NCBI GenBank assembly: GCA_965153455.1
Contig: OZ234493.1
Location: 24,232,213 to 24,296,212, forward strand
Reading direction: 5' to 3'
Length of the DNA: 64,000 nucleotides
Source of the DNA: Sphagnum compactum
Lineage: Eukaryota
Shown: piece by piece, positions 11,625 to 63,961 of the stretch
Layout: each line of letters opens with the position of its first letter
Numbering within the stretch: position 1 is the stretch's first letter
Position numbers and translations under genes: made by a program
The notes under the pieces: generated by a model
Database searches by the model: none
What the model saw: the letters and a program-made list of their open reading frames with translations, nothing else
Told to the model about the DNA's origin: nothing

Positions 11625-11826
11625 GGGAATGCCTCCACTCTGGGGATTTACCCTACACTTCGATTATCGAGCGAGTGGCAGTTGTTTTCAGGAAAGCTGC
11701 TCGTCGCAACTTGGTAAAGCTGCCAGTGTGTCGAGCGAGCAGGGAGGGGTGAAGAAGAAGAAGAAGAAGAAGGAACAAGGAACAAGAAGAAGAAGCAGAA
11801 GGGGGAGGAGGAGGAAGAGGAGAGGG

Positions 11827-14800
11827 ATGGATACTGTGGCACGGGCACAGGTGTTGTTGACAGCATGGGATTCCAGCATGAGCCAGGCGCGGCGAGATCG
11901 AGAATCTATCTGGCACCAGTATGAGGTCGACTGTCGTGCTGAAGATGTGGATTTCATGGCATCGGAACGTGCTCATCGGCACGAGGATACAATGATGCAG
12001 GAGAAGAGGCTACAGTAAGAGAAGTCGCCGCAACTTTAGTAGTAGTAGTAGTAGTATCTACAATTGGTTTAGTAGTTGTGGTTTTCTTTGGTTTTCTGGT
12101 TTGGTTTCCAATGATGAAATTCTTTCAGTATCGTTCATCTTGTGGTTGTTCTCTTCGATTTCAGGTGGAGAATTGAGGATATGGAGCAACGCAACCTGGA
12201 AAACGCGCGAGTGTTGTGGCTCAGGTAAGTGATTTTTATTTTTTTTCCATCTTGTACTGGGAAGCCTTTTTTGCTGTCACTGCGGCTCCTCTTCCTCTTG
12301 TCACATAGTGACAGGCCGAGTTATCTGTGGTGTAAATTCAGGTTTGTTGAGAAAAATCGGAGAGATGTTGAGGAGAAGACGGAACAGTTGAAGGCTATTT
12401 CCAATCTAGCAGCTCTGTTTGCAGGCTTTGCAGTTGTCACCTTGACACAGTTCAATATCGATGACTCCTCCGACTCCTCGTTCTGGAATGAGCCTTCCAC
12501 AGTGGTATCAGACTGTTGCTCCACCCGCCAAAATTCTTTGTTTCTGCAATCAGAACTACACTTCTGATGTCTATGGCCAGATGCTAGGTTCATCGAGTGA
12601 CATCCCATGCAAGTTGACCTTGACATTTACCTGTCTTGAACCAAGGATTGTACAGAGAGCCAGTAAATGCCCACACAGGATTGTTTCTCTTGTCTTGCCA
12701 GATTGCTATTTTGTGTCTTTGGTTTGTGTGATTTCATATCATAAAGGTACTGTGATGCATCATTGAGGGAGCCTGGTCTAATATATGTGTGTTCAACCAT
12801 TTTTCTCATGTGTCAGGTTTTGGTTGGTTTGTATGGAGTTCTCACTGCCTTAGTGGTAAGATAGTTTGTCTCTTTCTATTGCATAGACAGATCATTATTA
12901 GGAACAAGTTTTTTAGCTGTTTTTAACTGCTCACATCTTGATGGTTTGGGTAATGCATTAAACAGGACTCTTAAACATAATACTATTGTCTGCCTTGTTG
13001 TTTCACACAGGAAGGTCTAATGACAATATCATTGGTGACATGCACACTCATACTGGGGAGCATCCTCAAGATAGGAAAGTTATATGTTAATGAAGATGCA
13101 GAAGAGGAATTTATATTTGAGTGTCATAAATTCTGTCACAACTTTCAAGAAGGGGATCGGCCCCCTTGCCCCAAGCGCACCTTGGAAGCTTTCTGGGAAT
13201 TCAGGTAATACTTTTACCTTGTAGCAGAGATTAGGAGGTCCATGGAAGCTTAAAGGCTTGTTAGTTCTCCATTATGTAACTACAGCTCCGATGGTACAGC
13301 TGATCTCAACAAACAAGAACACATATATCTTATTGTTCAAGTTCCTCTGTTATGTTGATTGTGTGCAAATGTTCTGTGAAGATTGGTGATGTGAGACTGT
13401 TCCTTTGGCAGATGTGAATCAAGCTGGCAGCGAGCCTTCCTGTGCTTCTCTTTTGGTAAGCACGGCAATTACAAACCAGGAAGTATCAGATCAATACACA
13501 GTGTCATTACTCATTGATCACACCACTCAGTGACTATGTAGGCTATGCCCATCTTTTGCACTTGCCACACAGCCAAACATGTCTCAATATATGTACTCTT
13601 ACTCTGACTTATTCTGGTGTGCATGTCATATGAATACAACTGTGCACAAGATACAGAGATACAAAGAACTGCACATAAAGCAGCTCCCTCTTTTGCAGCC
13701 TTTTTCCATCTTGAGACATACATGTGGTGATCTCTATTTGTAGTCTGATTACTGCAAAGCATTCTGCTTCTGGACAATAACAATTACAACTCTGTGCAAT
13801 AGAACTGTCTTTCAGTTGATTACTCAGTGGTGTGGGCTAACAAAACACTTGCATGGATCTGTGGTGTAGGTGTGTGTGCATTTGTCAGTAGTCTTGTGGT
13901 GATTGGGTATGTCCTTCCTGAGCTTCATTTCGCTGTGTGTCTCCCTCTGTTTCCCCACTGGGCATGCAGTCCTTCTTCTCCTGCTTGAAGGGGGTGACAG
14001 GGTTTCTGCAGTTGCAGCCTTCTAGCTGTCTTCATCTGTTTTCAGTCTCATATCTTGCATTCAAATAGATAAATTTACCTGCATGGGAATTCCTAGAGTG
14101 CAAAGTGCCAGCAATACCAGTGAATAGTGTCAATCCTGGTCTAAAAGTTTCTTTCTGCATTTGTTTTTGGGCTCATAGCACCTAGTTGTCATGATGATAC
14201 TCTTCTGTCTTCTAGATACCTTTCTACCATCTAAGCTAAGACAGATACATAAATTGATGCAAGTTTTTCTGGATGCAGATGGGTGAAGTACCGTGCAAGA
14301 TCAGTGCTGACCGCAGGACTTTTCATAGCCATCTGTGGCATTTCCATTTTAGTCTGGTGCGCCCATGCAAAACTATACTTCCTAAAAGCTTTAGGCCCTT
14401 GATGAGAGGTGGTGAAATTTCTGGAACTCTGATAGGGCAGGCATTACACAGATTAATTCTCCATGCTCAGGACTCATGTCATGTTTCTTAGCTTGTCATG
14501 ACTTCATCGTGACCCAGTATGCATTGTTCTACTATTGTGACTTTGATCAAAATGTTCAAAAGCTCAATGAACCTCAGAAAGGAGATTGGCCGAACCAGTA
14601 CTGGAAACTTGGTGTTTAGCTGTGCATGATATCACAAATAAACTGACATTGTCAGTAATACTGCATACTCCGTGAGACTTTACAATTGTGGGTGACTTTA
14701 TTCCATCTTTGACACTGTTTTTCCTGCTGTATTCACTTGTGCAGGATGGCGATCCAATACTCATGGAGCAAGTTTATGCAATTAAGGCGTCTAGGTGGTG

Positions 14801-14889
14801 GGCTCAATCATGTAGCTACCTACACAATCAGTCCAGATGGACTCCCCTTTGATTGGTATCTCGCTCCTAGTTTTTGTCAGACTCGTTGA
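11827..14889 (+). CDS. Orai/CRAC-family (Orai-1 domain) membrane channel homologue, ~315 aa, 9 exons
   Basis: Exons: 11827-12014, 12165-12224, 12342-12504, 12817-12855, 13011-13204, 13412-13455, 13870-13906, 14279-14356, 14745-14889. All introns are GT-AG; total 948 nt, in frame. TM1 LKAISNLAALFAGFAVVTLTQFNID aligns without gaps to Orai1 [25 protein letters not shown]. TM3 ends IGWVKY (Orai1 LCWVKF). Four hydrophobic segments. Confidence 0.88.
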
Positions 14890-19594: not shown

Positions 19595-22500
19595 ATGGGG
19601 AATTACATGGCCTGTATGGGATCCAAGCAGAAGAAGAAGAACTCGAAGTTGAATATGAGCGGGATGCGGAGGAGAGGACCACTGGAGGACGAGTTAATCG
19701 AGCAACAAGCGTTAGCCATGGCCTTGCACCAGCAGCACAAGGCACAGCTCAGATTTGAACGCAGCTTGTCGAACCGTGACCCAGCCACAGCACCTCCACG
19801 CCGCAGTTACTCAGGCAAACCCAGTAGCGGCAAACTAGAGTACACACGCAGCGCAAGCACTCGCCCTCGACATTCCAACGATCTTCTCATCGACCCTCAG
19901 CAGCTTCTCAATGGCACTCGGGTATATACTTCTTCTTCCTCCTCCCCTCTTCTTCTTCTTCTTCTGACTCCCCAGAGAAATGGTACGCCTCTTCTCCCAC
20001 CCATCTGCACCAACAAGCTCCTCCTCATGTACATGGCCTTGGAAGCACATGAGCAGAATTATTTCTTCCTTCTCCCACCCATCTGCACCATCAAGCTCCT
20101 CCTCCTCATGTGTGGGGCCTTGGAAGGACATGAGCAGAATGATGATTTCTTTCTTCTCCCACCCATCTGCACCAACAAACTCCTCCTCCTCATGTGCATG
20201 GGCATTGAAGCAAGCACATGAGCAGAATGATTGTTTCTTTCTTCTCCCACCATCTGCACCAAGCTCTTCTTCCTCATGTGCATTGGCCTTAGAAGCAAGC
20301 ACATGCGCTGAATGTCAATGGTTTCTTTCTTCCTCTTACTATCACACCAAGCTCCTCCTCATGTGTGGCAAGGAGGAGGCCTTCTTGGAGCATATGAGCA
20401 GCTCAAAAGAACCAAAATTGCAGAGCATCAATTGAAGAATCTCTTTTGCACATGCATGTTGCCAATTCCATTCCTGATTCTAACTTCCAAAAGCATTTCA
20501 TTCACAAAAGCCGCCAGTTGATACCAACCATAGTAAGCAAGGGTTTTTGTTTTGGAGAGCTTGACAAAACCAATATTACCCATTTGCAGCTTGACTTTTT
20601 CCATCTCCACAAGTCCTTTGCATGGTGCATGCACCTGTTGTGGTTTGGGTGCTGCAGGCTTAAGCTAGCTGCTTGGACTACTTTTTGCAGTAAAAGTGGC
20701 ACATATTGAATTGTGTCTGTCTGGTGCTAGAGTTGCAAGCGTTGCATCTCAACAACCATGGTTGATACTTGATTACAGCTAAGGTGGACGGACAGATATG
20801 AGTACAGTTTGGATTTGATGAAAGTGCAAAGTAAAAAAAGCTCAGGTGTGGTGTGACCATTTAGGTGAGTTGTTGGGAGGATGATTATACTCTTTGCAAG
20901 TCAAGTGGAGCTGAAATTATATAGGTAGTTGTGTGTGTTGTGCTTTGCAGGAAGGTTTTTTGGCGGCAACTTTGGAATCGAAGCACTTTGTTCTGGTGCA
21001 TGGAGGGGGACTTGGAGCATGGTGTTGGTACAAATCAATTGCATTGCTTGAGGAGTCAGGATTTGTAGCTACAGCTGTTGATCTCGCGGGCTCTGGAATC
21101 GAACCCACAGATCCTAATCAAATCACAAGCTTAGCCCAGTATGTGAAACCTCTTGTGGAGCTTCTGGAAAACTTGGCTGGCACCGAGAAGGTACTGCTTT
21201 GTTTTTTAGGATTTTTCTTCCCCATTGCATATCTGTTGCATGAATGAATGTATCAATGCGTTTTCTGTATTGCAGTTGGGAAGCTTTACTCCTCAGAAAT
21301 CCAAGGGTATTAATCTCCCAAACTACACAGCTACTCCTCCTTTGGAATCAACCTATCATCCTAGCCTCTTTTGTGTATGAAGGTGATTTTCAGTAGTAGT
21401 TGGATCCACAACTGTAAGTTGCATCATTTTGAGTTGTGAGGGAGATTGGATTTGCTGATTGTTGTCATTAGGTCACCCTGGAACAAATCAGGTTTTTCTC
21501 CAGTCCTCAAATTCAGAGTTTTCATTGTCAAGAGCAATTGGACTTGTCATCAGAAACTGAAAAGATGGTCAATCCTTCCATTCTCTACTAGCATCATTGC
21601 CAATGATCGCTAAAGCACTAGCAATGAGAGCTTCAATGACATTAGTGTTATGTAGGGTTTTGAGATTATATAAAGTGCCACCTCCCTCCTCCCTCCCCCC
21701 TGAAAATGGAAAAAGGATACATCTAGATTGTCAACAAAGTGGAGCTTACTGGATCCTTGACCCTTTAGGGTTTTTGCCTTCTTTTGGAAGTGGTCACCTT
21801 CTAAGTGCATTACCAGGAGCAATGCCATTGGGCAACACTCCTAACACTTGACACCCAGGTACCCATAAGTTTTTCAGTGACCAGTTGATGTCTACTATAT
21901 CTGGGTTGGATATAGTAGGTAACATCTAGCATGGCCCTAATTGTGAATTGGCCCACAACTATTTGCAAGGTGGCAATGTGTCCTGACTGTTTGGGCTATT
22001 GACTTGATGCTTTAATTGCCCAGATTTAGCTGCAGTTCAGCAGCAAGAATTTTTTTGATGTGAAATTGGGTTTTCTTAGGGATCAGTTTGTTACACAATG
22101 AAAATCTGTGATCAGCCAATTTTTTAGGACTTGGTTGGTCAGGTCAAGGACTCCAGTTCAAACAAACCTGGTGATGAGGGACTGCAGGTGATTTTGGTGG
22201 GCCACAATATAGGAGGAGGCTGCATATCTTATGTCATGGAGTGCTTTCCAAACCGGATTGCTAAGGCCATTTTTGTTGCAGCATCAATGGTTTGCACTGG
22301 TCAGCGAGCGTTTGATGTTTTTGCCAAGAAAGTAAGTTTCCTTTGTTTTCAAAGGACAACTAGCAGAACTGCAACTCACATGACCTTCAAAAATTTGGTA
22401 TTTAGCTTCTGAAAGAGAGTTTGAGCAAGAGGTTCTTAAGTAAGTGAGGGGTTTGACCTGATTTGGGATTGTGAGCTTTTGCTTTAGCAGGAGAAAAGTG

Positions 22501-61337: not shown

Positions 61338-63961
61338 TTACAAGCCCACTTTTGCCTCAAGCTTTTGAATCTCGTTCAAGAAAATCCATGTCATCTGCAC
61401 ACCCGCAATGCATGATATGAAACTTTTTAATAACTCTCATGAGAATTGAATAATCTCCATACTCATGATCAAAAAAGCCAGGATGGGTGAAAAACTTTTC
61501 CTTGAAGTCAAAGAAAGATAACCACCAGCAGTACAAATGAGCAGCTCACATATAGTTCCTTTCAAGAGGCAATTACCAGGACTGAATCATAAACAAACGT
61601 CCCCCCCGAAAAAAGAAAAGTTTGCCAGGCAAGTAACATGCAGAAAAAAAGAAAGACAGGCGTACCATGACATGGGGAGCAATACGGATACAGTACGTGC
61701 CAAACCCAGTATAGAATTTCAGCAGACCTCCAGCCTTTAGTGTTTGCAAAGCACAGTCTACAGAGCCTGTGTAAGGGAACTTGCCATCTGGGCCAGGCTG
61801 CATCTTCTGTATCTGGGTCTTTACATAGTCAAATGGGAGACTACAGGCTGATGCAAAAAAACCAGACACGGCACTTGCTCCTGTTCAAAAAATCCAAAGC
61901 TTGATCAGTAGCATATTCCAGATCCTCGGCATTACAACACAGCAGGCTGTCTTTTGGAGCGGTTTCTCAATTGCATACAGCAGTCTACCAATCCTGTGAC
62001 ACAAGCCCTCTTGTGACAAGAGAACATTAACCAGAACATACCAATGACTGTAGGAATCTCTCCAAAGCTCAGGGAATCCCTGAAGAACTCCACACTCTGG
62101 TCATATGAAGCAAGCATGCCCATGTTGAGAGCCATAGCTCGCACCACTGTTGGCCCTGCACCCTTCCACATTGCCAGCACTCCCTCATCCTTGATGATTC
62201 TTGTGAGGGCATGGAAGGCATTTTTGTAATGGCGACGATGAGCTTCTGGAAGTGTGGCATCTGCTTGCATCCGGATGAGAGCAAGGTCAGCAGGACTTCC
62301 CACAGAGGCACCAATTGCACCAGCTGTTAGTCCACATAGAGCCTTCTGGTACAGAGGCAAAGGCTTTCCATCATTGGCTGCCATAGCCTTGCTTGTCAAC
62401 AACCTGTCATCCCAAAAAAAATGCACCCATTTGGCTTAGCAACCTTCCTCATTCTCTATAGAGCTTCCAAATCTCTAAAACAATATTTATTTAGAGCTTT
62501 TGGTCTAGAAATTTGGAACTATACTAAGCACCCAATTCATGTGCAGGCAAATCTCTTTGCACAAGCTTGGCAAGATTAGAATCTGTCAGCAGCTGATTAG
62601 AGCACAGGTGGAAATAACAAATGAGTGGTTTTGAAGTGCCAGAGAGAAACACATTTTCAGAGACATGAATGATGAGTTTTCAGACCTGAAGCTACCAAGA
62701 CGGGCAGTGGTGTAAGTGGCTTGCCGCAACAAACCTGCGGACAAACCCTGCATTCCAATTCACATTGAAAGATGAGGAGGATATCCTTGCCAAAATTGAC
62801 AACACAATGACACTCAAGGAAAACCACTGTAGTCCAATCTCAGTGATCCATTACAAAACTCCAAGTTTCAGCATGGATGCCCAACAACTACCTTTCAAAG
62901 AGACAAGCCAATCCCTGTGTCATGAAGGCTGAAATATATACAGCCACAAGGTTCACAGGTGCAAGGCAAGACATCAGCTACTCAACCTGACAATTACAAA
63001 TCCACATTAGGGTTTGAAATAGAAGCCATGAACTCTCTCACAGATAGAACAAAGACAGACAGACACAGAGGCAAAAAATGTAAGTGTTTGCATTTGCTAG
63101 ATAAGATGGGAGGATGAGGGATCTCAAAAAATAAAATCAGACCTTGTAGAGTCCACCAATACCCTCATTCTTGATAACCTGACTTGCAACATGTGCGGCA
63201 CTGCCTTGCCCTAGCTGAATGCGCACCTGCACCAGCACACGCATTGTTGATCAGTCCTTGTTTCATGGCTATTTACTCCATCCACATGAGAGGATTCATA
63301 AAAGGAGTCTCTGTTTTATGAATCGCTCCATCCACAGAGGAGAAAAGCAGTCTCTCTTTAGAGAATTCTCGGGAACCAAGAAGACCCATCCAAGCTTTGA
63401 TGTAGGGTTATTTCGGAAGTCAACTAGAGCTGATCAGAACTTCCCAACTGTATAATCTAACCATCTAACTGTGTACTGAAGTTTTTCTGATGCCTTTTGC
63501 TGACAAAACCATAACATAACTCCTTGTGAATTGGACTATGCATGCAGAGATCTATCGATTAACAACATCATATCAAGGAACTCTTGCTGCTCAGGAGATG
63601 AGTAAACATCAGAGGCAGAGGACATAACAGACCACTCTTGGAACAGATCAGGAATCATTTATAGGGTTACAACAAGACAACCAGTGTGAGTTTGCAATCA
63701 ACACACATCCCAAGGTGGTTTTCCCCCTAGGAACCGGAAGCAGCAGGCCGTCAAGCGGAAAACGCCGCTATTCGAGCTTCATTTCCTCCCTCAAAGATCC
63801 CATGCATCAACGATTTCTGAAGGACACTTTACCTTGATCATGTCCACGGGTTGAATGACACAAGTTGCACCCATGCCTGACAAACCTCCATTCAGAAACG
63901 GCTTGACGGTAGTCCATACAGTTGTTACTGGCACTTTATTCTCTTCCGATCTAGAACCCAT
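61338..63961 (-). CDS. DTC: Mitochondrial dicarboxylate/tricarboxylate carrier (mitochondrial carrier family), ~302 aa, 6 exons
   Basis: Exons: 63961-63833, 63226-63143, 62747-62686, 62403-62042, 61880-61666, 61394-61338 (909 nt). Three MCF signatures: PVDMIKVRIQ, PADLALIRMQ, PFDYVKTQIQ. Diagnostic segments VWTTVKPFLNGGLSGMGATCVIQP, GLSAGLLRQATYTTARLG and RIAPHVMMTWIFLN. Confidence 0.96.

Follow-up and report, generated by a model that had tools for sequence, protein, structure and literature searches.

The DNA analysed here, a stretch of 64 kb called the window below, contains a gene of the Orai family, in the pore helix of which the glutamate responsible for Ca2+ selectivity of animal Orai is replaced by glutamine (Gln119). 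This glutamate is missing from every streptophyte Orai examined and was replaced repeatedly in green algae. Within streptophyte Orai, the gene in question belongs to "group A" as its peat-moss (Sphagnum-like) member; it is transcribed and correctly spliced, and purifying selection acts on it, most strongly in the region of the pore helix.

The gene occupies positions 11827-14889 on the forward strand of the window and is composed of nine exons with 315 codons plus stop, separated by eight introns with GT-AG splice sites throughout (Table 1). Splicing was assessed by raw polyA RNA reads (run X24, n=314 reads), which confirmed all eight introns exactly at the positions of the model with 13-38 reads per joint and gave no joint within the last exon. 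Contigs of RNA libraries (runs X1-X3) include intron sequence and were used for variant positions only, not for splicing; no variant of the Gln119 codon was registered among RNA reads. An intact frame of nine exons, proposed earlier in the sequence-only reading, is therefore supported by RNA, although the span ascribed to the gene at that stage, 12342-14356, comprises exons 3-8 only. The N-terminus encoded by exon 1 agrees with Sphagnum orthologues, and a tblastn search revealed no second Orai copy within the 64 kb.

Table 1. Features of the Orai gene; positions are those of the window.
Feature	Position	Strand	Content	Evidence and conservation
Exon 1	11827-12014	+	Start codon and charged N-terminal helix	GT donor; joint 12014>12165 in 34 reads
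Exon 2	12165-12224	+	Conserved pre-TM1 helix	Flanking joints in 34 and 31 reads
Exon 3	12342-12504	+	Juxtamembrane helix, pore helix TM1, start of loop 1	Pfam Orai-1 E 3.1e-13; gap-free versus dOrai TM1
Codon AAT, Asn104	12403-12405	+	Opposite dOrai K163 (human R91)	N in 25/29 streptophyte sequences
Codon CAG, Gln119	12448-12450	+	Selectivity-filter position (dOrai E178, human E106)	Q in 29/29 streptophytes
Exon 4	12817-12855	+	Start of TM2	Flanking joints in 21 and 26 reads
Exon 5	13011-13204	+	TM2 and long conserved cytosolic loop 2	Pfam Orai-1 E 2.5e-7; joints in 26 and 30 reads
Exon 6	13412-13455	+	End of loop 2 and start of TM3	Flanking joints in 30 and 13 reads
Exon 7	13870-13906	+	TM3	Flanking joints in 13 and 31 reads
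Codon AGT, Ser	13890-13892	+	Six residues ahead of W in W-V-K	Opposite dOrai E262 (human E190)
Exon 8	14279-14356	+	W-V-K motif and TM4	Flanking joints in 31 and 38 reads
Exon 9	14745-14889	+	End of TM4, C-terminal tail, stop (14887-14889)	RNA depth 22-46, unbroken to 15000
C-terminal motif G-L-P-F-D-W-Y	14839-14859	+		Conserved across plant and algal Orai

A check against the Pfam profile Orai-1 (PF07856, curated cut-off 25 bits), suggested together with the first description of the gene, gave 50.2 bits (E 3.1e-13) for exon 3 alone and 31 bits (E 2.5e-7) for exon 5, while the Sphagnum fallax orthologue P0009 matched profile positions 2-169 of 173 with E 1.5e-38 (132.6 bits). Four hydrophobic segments are present in the protein of the window gene. 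Its fold was judged from an AF2 model of the P0009 monomer (pLDDT 80.2), which stands in for the window protein. With VIA-align, chains of Drosophila Orai fill the best six rows obtained for this model (Z 11.6-14.2, rmsd 2.3-3.8 Å over 127-146 residues), and the top nine Foldseek rows against PDB are also all Drosophila Orai, the best with E 3.1e-3 and none at ≤0.001. Approximately 95 N-terminal residues are predicted in the model as a single helix running into TM1, and the TM1 helix terminates exactly at residue 119; human E106 sits at the extracellular end of TM1, as described in an excerpt of PMC4835918. The product belongs to the Orai family, and the model predicts for it the fold of a CRAC-channel subunit, in which the first of four membrane helices (TM1) serves as pore helix.

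In the phmmer alignment against PDB, exon 3 lies gap-free on Drosophila Orai (dOrai) and its glutamine faces the E of M-V-E-V-Q-L-D; a profile built of 56 sequences reproduces this TM1 alignment with Q opposite the filter Glu. The structure alignment brings residues 85, 89 and 97 of the P0009 model onto dOrai 144, 148 and 156, and this constant offset of 59 puts Q119 on dOrai 178, so the shift of an acidic residue into the filter, envisaged at the outset as a possible effect of structure-based alignment, did not take place. Direct comparison of the Gln profile with the Glu profile by hhalign (probability 100, E 6e-113, 305 columns, 44% identity) again set Q opposite E. The glutamate ring residue of the CRAC-type filter (human E106, dOrai E178) is, thus, not present, and Gln119 is found instead. 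The glutamate of TM3 that tunes selectivity (human E190, dOrai E262) is missing as well: in the 56-sequence profile a serine faces the Glu of dOrai L-L-E-I-A-I-L-C-W-V-K-F, and on the C-terminal side of the structure alignment an offset of 22 puts P0009 Ser240 on dOrai 262. Ser occupies this position in 27 of 29 streptophyte sequences. The inner-pore basic rings K163, K159 and R155 of dOrai correspond to Asn104, Lys100 and Thr96, one of the three being basic; Asn104 was placed opposite K163 by phmmer. The hinge Gly and the gate residues Phe, Val and Leu are all present in the window protein with the G-F pair kept, and the same residues were found in most of the 29 streptophyte sequences (G in 28, F in 27, V in 28, L in 25, and K at the K159/K87 position in 26). 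All four residue assignments made from the sequence alone, i.e. Gln for E106, Asn for R91, Ser for E190 and the retained G and F of the gate, were in this way borne out.

The triplet L117-T118-Q119 is invariant in 29/29 streptophyte sequences, and so is Glu93, which corresponds to dOrai Q152 and human Y80. The window protein has an acid-rich loop 1, with aspartates at positions +4, +5 and +8 relative to Gln. A compensating acid one turn above Gln was considered and rejected, since position +4 is acidic in just 12 of 29 streptophyte sequences; positions beyond it are not conserved. A second column co-varying with the Glu/Gln exchange was also sought and rejected, as only the filter column splits three Gln groups from four Glu groups. 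For the TM2 histidine (dOrai H206, human H134) HMMER gives P0009 Met157 and hand alignment on the T-C pair gives Gly155; in the HMMER-aligned column His was found in 3 of 29 streptophyte sequences.

The 29 aligned streptophyte Orai came from mosses, lycophytes, a fern, gymnosperms, Chara and Closterium and fall into two old paralogue groups, both of which have Gln at the filter in all sequences (29/29). The same residue is encoded in all 16 metagenome loci that extend over this codon (6 CAG, 10 CAA) and in every streptophyte match bearing an organism name in three database searches. A Glu-bearing streptophyte Orai was found neither among 149 HMMER hits (1.84 billion representatives) nor in two word-indexed searches with 72 and 119 hits. 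Across the sequences compared, the filter Gln is a fixed trait of streptophyte Orai in both old paralogue groups. Being common to all land-plant and charophyte Orai examined, it is a lineage-wide trait rather than an oddity of the window gene. In the papers searched, no mention of the filter Gln of plants was found.

On the phylogenetic tree, obtained by a "quick" search and containing several long branches, the streptophyte clade (SH-aLRT 98) has Q in 25 of 25 rows, while the filter Glu is retained in many chlorophytes and in outgroups. The tree requires at least three Glu/Gln changes, and none of 500 label shuffles gave a number as low. A single Gln clade was rejected by the AU test (p 0.0051), for which the tested group was chosen with the tree already known. 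According to this tree, Glu was the ancestral residue from which Gln was derived, and exchanges between the two took place three or more times within the green lineage.

Conservation is highest in TM1, where the mean pairwise identity of the 29 streptophyte sequences reaches 0.825; seven of them, including Selaginella, Picea, Psilotum and Closterium, share an identical block of 38 residues. The dN/dS estimation, also suggested initially, gave 0.31-0.32 over 315 codons versus three orthologous loci (L002-L004), a value indicative of purifying selection and resting on 8-11 synonymous and 9-13 non-synonymous changes. Residues 98-120 have no amino-acid changes relative to these loci, and the window, like three full-length orthologous loci, preserves the whole frame of 315 codons.

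Since the protein has neither of the two glutamates (filter and TM3) nor a base at the position of R91, a classical CRAC channel is unlikely. This part of the initial interpretation holds; the absence of the TM3 Glu, which served there as an additional argument, is not specific for the Gln type. With somewhat more confidence than doubt we assume that the protein is a functional, STIM-independent pore of the Orai family other than the classical Ca2+-selective CRAC channel. It would assemble into an Orai-type pore that retains Gly of the hinge, Phe, Val and Leu of the hydrophobic gate and, as the sole basic ring, Lys100; neutral Gln would take the place of Ca2+-binding Glu in the outer ring, and the other two basic rings of the inner pore would be lost. 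Such a neutral ring together with the two lost basic rings argues against a highly Ca2+-selective, Ca2+-blocked CRAC pore, and ion passage would most likely be of low or different selectivity. PMC11085791 (section 2.12) and PMC8318260 describe STIM as not present outside animals and choanoflagellates, plants and green algae being without it. STIM gates CRAC channels via their C-terminal helix, and the plant protein has a different conserved motif at its C-terminus. Because plants have no STIM, gating is probably performed by plant-specific cytosolic parts, candidates for which are the long N-terminal helix that runs into TM1, loop 2 with its length and conservation, and the G-L-P-F-D-W motif at the C-terminus. 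For plant Orai, the literature searches yielded neither electrophysiological recordings nor data on localisation or mutants.

A bolder version of the same idea, which we put forward only tentatively and regard as rather doubtful, considers streptophyte Orai a distinct STIM-independent channel class, having a Gln ring, carrying a current other than Ca2+-selective and gated via cytosolic parts. Substitution of the Glu ring by a Gln ring, arrived at independently at least three times in green lineages, would then mean another cargo: cations passing unselectively or monovalent ones, and conceivably even anions or small neutral solutes. The gate would be operated through the pore helix, which is extended very far into the cytosol and has Trp at heptad spacing there, together with the long loop 2 and the G-L-P-F-D-W tail.

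Jiraiya/TMEM221 (PF15038) is a family confined to animals. A function as scaffold or regulator, such as has been proposed for this Orai-derived family, would imply that ion conduction was given up, which we consider unlikely. According to PMC4835918, E106A and E106Q mutants of human Orai1 are non-functional, and PMC3769304 presents E106Q as a dominant-negative pore mutant, in agreement with the sequence-only reading; a Gln ring may therefore fail to conduct in an Orai scaffold. Jiraiya itself is described in PMC7016017 as an Orai derivative without Ca2+-binding residues, and some algal Orai give weak secondary Jiraiya matches below the cut-off, e.g. P0179 with E 1.6e-4 and 21.7 bits at a cut-off of 27. 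However, no part of the protein is more conserved than the pore helix, hardly any variation is seen at the gate and hinge positions, which would be difficult to account for without a pore, and the Pfam assignment is Orai-1 rather than Jiraiya, the profile of which matched neither the window exons nor P0009.

Even less probable is a Ca2+-permeable, perhaps Ca2+-preferring channel, with the ion coordinated by the amide ring, by acids of loop 1 or by a cytosolic Glu ring. The aspartates following Gln119 and the invariance of Glu93 are in line with this suggestion, and reviews of plant calcium signalling class Orai as a Ca2+ channel kept in green algae, bryophytes, lycophytes and gymnosperms, asking what replaces STIM. 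The acid at +4, however, is shared by only the 12 sequences mentioned above, the following positions are variable, and even the conservative E106D reduces Ca2+ selectivity of Orai1, as stated in an excerpt of PMC4835918.

The subunit hypothesis of the sequence-only reading, i.e. a special Gln paralogue that co-assembles with a Glu-bearing one and acts as its dominant-negative or regulatory partner, is now largely refuted and retains very little probability. It has in its favor the behavior of E106Q in human cells and the two Orai paralogue groups which the tree shows in mosses. Yet both groups have Gln in all sequences, as do all metagenome loci covering the site, so that among the streptophyte sequences examined a Q clade does not coexist with an E clade (Glu was found in many chlorophytes and in outgroups), nor did streptophyte orthologues all turn out to have Glu, the opposite outcome that had been foreseen. 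With no Glu-bearing streptophyte protein in any of the three hit lists, the idea of an inhibitory partner is left without its partner. A decaying relic on the way to the loss of Orai reported for angiosperms in the literature is contradicted by the intact frame in all four loci, dN/dS of about 0.31, splicing and expression of the gene and invariance of TM1 over hundreds of millions of years of divergence, and has practically no likelihood.

Absence of the filter Glu from proteins whose pore helix is most constrained moves the question from how plant Orai is gated to what it conducts. If streptophyte Orai did form a distinct class, inventories of Ca2+ signalling in early plants that have an entry "Orai Ca2+ channel" would be assigning these proteins to the wrong kind. 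For Orai biophysics the plant proteins are a natural experiment on a scaffold without an acidic filter, and closely related proteins, e.g. of Monoraphidium and Volvox types, offer a natural Gln/Glu pair in which single codons can be exchanged. Mosses have just two Orai paralogue groups that would need to be knocked out.

Drosophila Orai and human Orai1 (PDB 4HKR, 6BBF, 7KR5) belong to the same Pfam family and have the same fold as modelled here (Z up to 14.2). In common with the plant protein they have four TM helices, the first of which is the pore helix, together with the hinge Gly, the gate Phe/Val/Leu, Lys at K159/K87 and the W-V/I-K motif after TM3. The plant protein differs in having Gln for the filter Glu, Asn for the K163/R91 base, Ser/Thr for R155/R83 and Ser for the TM3 Glu; its loop 2 is longer by about 27 residues as estimated from alignment offsets, a predicted N-terminal helix of about 95 residues is continuous with TM1, and the C-terminus ends with G-L-P-F-D-W-[HY].

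Green-algal Orai of the Glu type (Volvox, Pleodorina, Tetraselmis, Ostreobium, Cymbomonas and marine prasinophyte-like metagenome proteins) fall into the same plant/algal subfamily as the Gln type and share with it the juxtamembrane block, loop 2 and the C-terminal motif. They also lack the R91-type base and the TM3 Glu, having N, A or Q there, but their filter is flanked as A/F-V/L-E versus T-L-T-Q in streptophytes. Chlorophyte Orai of the Gln type (Coccomyxa, Chlorella, Micractinium, Monoraphidium) have Gln in the same column as streptophytes, though with a separate origin on the tree and a local motif F/Y-L-Q-F. Jiraiya/TMEM221 resembles the plant proteins as an Orai-derived protein devoid of the Ca2+-binding residues, whereas the window protein scores as Orai-1. 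The engineered E106Q variant of Orai1 has the same residue at the same site as Gln119; it is, however, a laboratory loss-of-function mutant of a STIM-gated animal channel, whereas the plant Gln is natural, ancient, conserved and accompanied by other changes in the pore.

The sequence-only reading had described an intact Orai-like frame over 9 exons, given at 12342–14356. The frame and the exon number held up; that span covers exons 3 to 8 of the gene (see table). Every intron is GT-AG, and the open frame comprises 315 codons. In a search of public runs, 17 RNA-library runs (moss and plant metagenomes) and one raw-read polyA run, X24, matched between a quarter and a third of the stretch, namely its exonic part; four of these runs were mapped onto the window. 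X24 contributed 314 reads, in each case with the first mate on the − strand, and eight of eight joints were found in them at the exact predicted positions (13 to 38 reads per joint). Thus, the gene is expressed and its 9 exons are confirmed. No joint was registered within the last exon in the raw reads of X24, where the depth was 22–46 as far as 15000. Three exonic differences between this run and the window, found in all reads at 11917, 12213 and 13137 (Q31E, silent in Val79 and H193D), look like strain or species variation, not editing. The annotated S. jensenii and S. fallax proteins P0004 and P0009 have an extra intron after D-W of the C-terminal motif (window 14857 onward), followed by unrelated sequence with low pLDDT in the P0009 model. 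No such joint was present in the RNA reads on the window, and the end of the window model (...G-L-P-F-D-W-Y-L-A-P...) agrees with the Ceratodon and Gb_37702 (Ginkgo-like) proteins.

Features of the window and residues of the putative pore. Splice sites of exons were read from the sequence; pore residues were placed by pore-lining positions of Drosophila Orai (dOrai). Counts refer to 29 full-length streptophyte sequences, hand-picked and without fragments.
Feature	Position	Strand	Remark	Streptophyte sequences
Exon 1	11827–12014	+		
Exon 2	12165–12224	+		
Exon 3	12342–12504	+		
Exon 4	12817–12855	+		
Exon 5	13011–13204	+		
Exon 6	13412–13455	+		
Exon 7	13870–13906	+		
Exon 8	14279–14356	+		
Exon 9	14745–14889	+	stop codon 14887–14889	
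Arg89				R 28/29
Glu93				E 29/29
Ser/Thr at 96			Arg in animals	
Lys100				K 26/29
Asn104, codon AAT	12403–12405	+	opposite dOrai K163; base in animals	N 25/29
Leu108				L 25/29
Gly111			hinge	G 28/29
Phe112			adjoins hinge Gly111	F 27/29
Val115				V 28/29
Gln119, codon CAG	12448–12450	+	filter position	Q 29/29
TM3 Ser, codon AGT	13890–13892	+	opposite dOrai E262	
Purine-rich low-complexity stretch	11740–11826		directly upstream of Orai start codon; 11700–11830 skipped as repeat in read mapping	
(TAG)n microsatellite	12039–12056		intron 1	
Tandem repeat of 84–85 bp	19990–20365		~4 copies, downstream of ORF starting M-G-N-Y-M-A-C and contained in long ORFs of both strands; no Pfam match	
Exon with mitochondrial carrier repeat	61932–62435	−	Pfam Mito_carr, E 2.1e-21	

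Pfam Orai-1 (PF07856) was matched by exon 3 alone (E 3.1e-13) and by exon 5 (E 2.5e-7), as well as by P0009 of S. fallax (E 1.5e-38, profile positions 2–169 of 173), which is the closest full-length database protein (94% identity to the window model across 305 columns of the tree). Best database hits were Sphagnum proteins, and the RNA matches come from moss metagenomes, so that a Sphagnum-like moss is the source of the window. Four hydrophobic segments are apparent in the window model. An AF2 model was built on P0009 in place of the spliced window protein, using the 29-sequence alignment (mean pLDDT 80.2). Its best nine Foldseek rows in PDB were Drosophila Orai chains, with E of only 3e-3 to 2.5e-2 and TM-score by target of 0.60–0.76, and the best six rows of VIA-align were all Drosophila Orai as well (Z 11.6–14.2, rmsd 2.3–3.8 Å, 127–146 residues). 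In this model residues 2–119 (exons 1–3, 11827–12450) form one continuous helix through TM1, ending at the filter Gln, with block pLDDT of 81–95. N-terminal Trp residues of group-B Orai, one of two streptophyte paralogue groups, are spaced by 7, 7, 14, 14 in Sphagnum, Picea and Closterium and by 7, 7, 28 in Selaginella; such heptad spacing suggests that the helices form a cytosolic bundle prolonging the pore. The long loop 2 is conserved at 0.61 identity. At the C-terminus the motif G-L-P-F-D-W-[HY] (window 14839–14859) is kept in plant and algal Orai of both the Gln and the Glu type and also in haptophyte-like proteins; where STIM is missing, it is a candidate for docking or gating.

The filter register is the same in alignments of three independent kinds. 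With phmmer against PDB, exon 3 was placed without gaps on TM1 of Drosophila Orai, Gln standing opposite Glu of M-V-E-V-Q-L-D and Asn opposite Lys of S-S-K-T-S. A 56-sequence profile gave the identical TM1 register and set its TM3 Ser opposite Glu of L-L-E-I-A-I-L-C-W-V-K-F. Structure alignments start at model residues 85, 89 and 97 against dOrai 144, 148 and 156, i.e. with a constant offset of 59, and end with an offset of 22–23; provided that the helices are gap-free, as these ranges are end points only, Q119 would fall on dOrai 178 and Ser240 of P0009 on dOrai 262. Human numbering follows from dOrai H206 being human H134 (PMC7825772): the offset of 72 makes E178 equivalent to E106, K163 to position 91 and E262 to E190. 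E178 is named as important for Ca2+ selectivity in section 2.12 of PMC11085791. The TM1-bearing helix of the P0009 model ends exactly at residue 119, which fits the extracellular end of TM1 where the filter Glu sits according to PMC4835918. Gln, Asn and Ser proposed from the sequence for positions E106, R91 and E190 are thereby substantiated, as is retention of the Gly/Phe gate residues. A shift of the following Asp into the filter was ruled out, since the alignments have no gaps and position +4 is acidic in just 12/29 streptophyte sequences.

From the residue counts it follows that the hydrophobic gate and hinge are retained. Judged by these residues, the streptophyte pore is predicted to have a neutral outer ring in place of the acidic one and to have lost two of three inner basic rings.

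The filter Gln is a lineage trait and no peculiarity of the window gene. Exon 3 gave 72 hits (112 candidates) in a word-indexed set of 5.8 billion and, by HMMER, 149 hits among 1.84 billion representatives, while the 56-sequence profile gave 119 hits in the word-indexed set (8000 candidates scored). Cluster members included, this makes 302 proteins, ten of which were left out as fragments without TM1 or chance hits. The 292 with a sound TM1 alignment have Gln (150), Glu (140) or Asn (2), a redundant and query-biased set which does not provide frequencies. In these searches all named streptophytes had Gln in T-L-T-Q: Sphagnum fallax, S. jensenii, S. troendelagicum, Physcomitrium, Ceratodon, Selaginella and Diphasiastrum (two genes each), Psilotum, Picea, Welwitschia, Gb_37702, Chara, SM000... 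entries and many Closterium proteins. L117, T118 and Q119 are invariant in the 29 aligned sequences. An exon 5 scan of metagenomes yielded 17 loci, and all 16 extending to the filter codon encode Gln (CAG in six, CAA in ten), so that the amino acid is maintained while the codon drifts. Glu is found in the chlorophytes Volvox, Pleodorina, Tetraselmis, Ostreobium, Cymbomonas, Picocystis and a pedinophyte, and in the non-green Diacronema, Telonema and Cantina; Gln occurs in chlorophytes as well (Coccomyxa, Chlorella, Micractinium, Monoraphidium). No Glu-bearing Orai relative was found in the streptophyte lineage by the three database searches or among the 16 metagenome loci.

A quick IQ-TREE search was run on 60 rows (59 hand-picked long sequences and the window model; several long branches flagged). 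Streptophytes formed a single clade (SH-aLRT 98) with Gln in 25/25 rows, dividing into group A (support 97: divergent Closterium proteins, Gb_37702, second Selaginella and Diphasiastrum genes, mosses) and group B (support 94: P0010 of S. troendelagicum, first Selaginella and Diphasiastrum genes, Chara, Closterium). Such compositions, with mosses, lycophytes and charophytes, make both groups older than land plants, and Gln is fixed in each. The window sequence is sister of S. fallax within group A (support 99). Thus, a Gln clade and old paralogues were recovered, and a Glu clade beside them in streptophytes was not. On this tree the Glu/Gln label must have changed 3 times or more (0/500 shuffles that low). 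A tree constrained to unite the 37 Gln rows, a group named after the tree was seen, was worse by 52.2 log-likelihood units (AU p 0.0051). Since outgroup rows and animal Orai carry Glu, three Glu-to-Gln replacements are the simplest reading. At the position of P0009 residue 154 in TM2 (window ~12853–12855, exon 4 end, to exon 5 start) group A has Glu in 12/15; in group B this residue is Val, Ala or Ile (14/14). Loci of both groups occur together in two moss-associated metagenomes (L002 with L008/L015, L005 with L009/L010), which fits the presence of both paralogues in one Sphagnum genome.

Mean pairwise identity in the 29 streptophyte sequences is highest in TM1 (0.825), then in the helix directly before it (0.776), and lowest in the N-terminus (0.37) and TM4 (0.40). 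An identical 38-residue block of juxtamembrane helix and TM1 is common to 7/29, including Selaginella, Picea, Psilotum and Closterium. Four orthologous metagenome loci share 95–96% DNA identity with the window gene, with intron mismatch of 2.8–3.6%. Against the three full-length ones dN/dS was 0.31–0.32 over 315 codons (8–11 synonymous and 9–13 non-synonymous changes), and against the partial one 0.54 over 229 codons. The window protein differs from those of the full-length loci at 9–12 amino acids, which are located in the N-terminus, loops 1 and 2, TM3 start and tail; none falls within residues 98–120.

The window protein is, therefore, an expressed and constrained Orai-family member with a neutral filter ring. 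Because the pore helix is the most constrained part and Gln was fixed three times and kept, we infer that the pore is still needed, yet unable to bind Ca2+ in the CRAC manner. Of the initial statement that this is not a classical CRAC channel, the neutral ring was seen directly, and the loss of CRAC-type binding is deduced. A required pore with no CRAC-type Ca2+ binding favours, by a modest preference, a channel that works without STIM and has a low selectivity or one of another kind, in which a Gln ring would replace the Ca2+-binding Glu ring and gating would proceed through plant-specific cytosolic parts; plants and green algae are described as devoid of STIM in section 2.12 of PMC11085791 and in PMC8318260. 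The main rival, a non-conducting scaffold or regulator as proposed for Jiraiya, agrees with human Orai1, where E106 alone forms the filter and E106A/Q abolish function (PMC4835918), but the strongest selection on the pore helix implies a need for the pore and makes this option rather unlikely. Ca2+ preference kept by other means is less likely still; in human Orai1 even E106D reduces Ca2+ selectivity (PMC4835918). An inhibitory subunit of a Glu-bearing paralogue, as suggested from the sequence, would resemble E106Q, which serves as a dominant-negative pore mutant (PMC3769304), and is highly improbable, as the required Glu-bearing partner was not found among the streptophyte proteins and metagenome loci searched and both paralogue groups carry Gln.

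It is established that algae, bryophytes, lycophytes and gymnosperms possess Orai and that angiosperms do not (PMC7016017, PMC8318260 and reviews). In the full-text articles searched, we found no functional study of plant Orai and no statement that they lack the filter Glu; the "conserved glutamate" of algal Orai is discussed in one paper, just as retained by a divergent diatom class (PMC11085791). The window gene is an ordinary orthologue, and what deserves attention is that the filter Glu was lost convergently and throughout a lineage. The TM3 Glu is missing in streptophytes too (Ser in 27/29). However, Glu-type algal Orai also lack it, having N, A or Q there, so that its loss is older than the appearance of Gln in the filter and unlinked to it.
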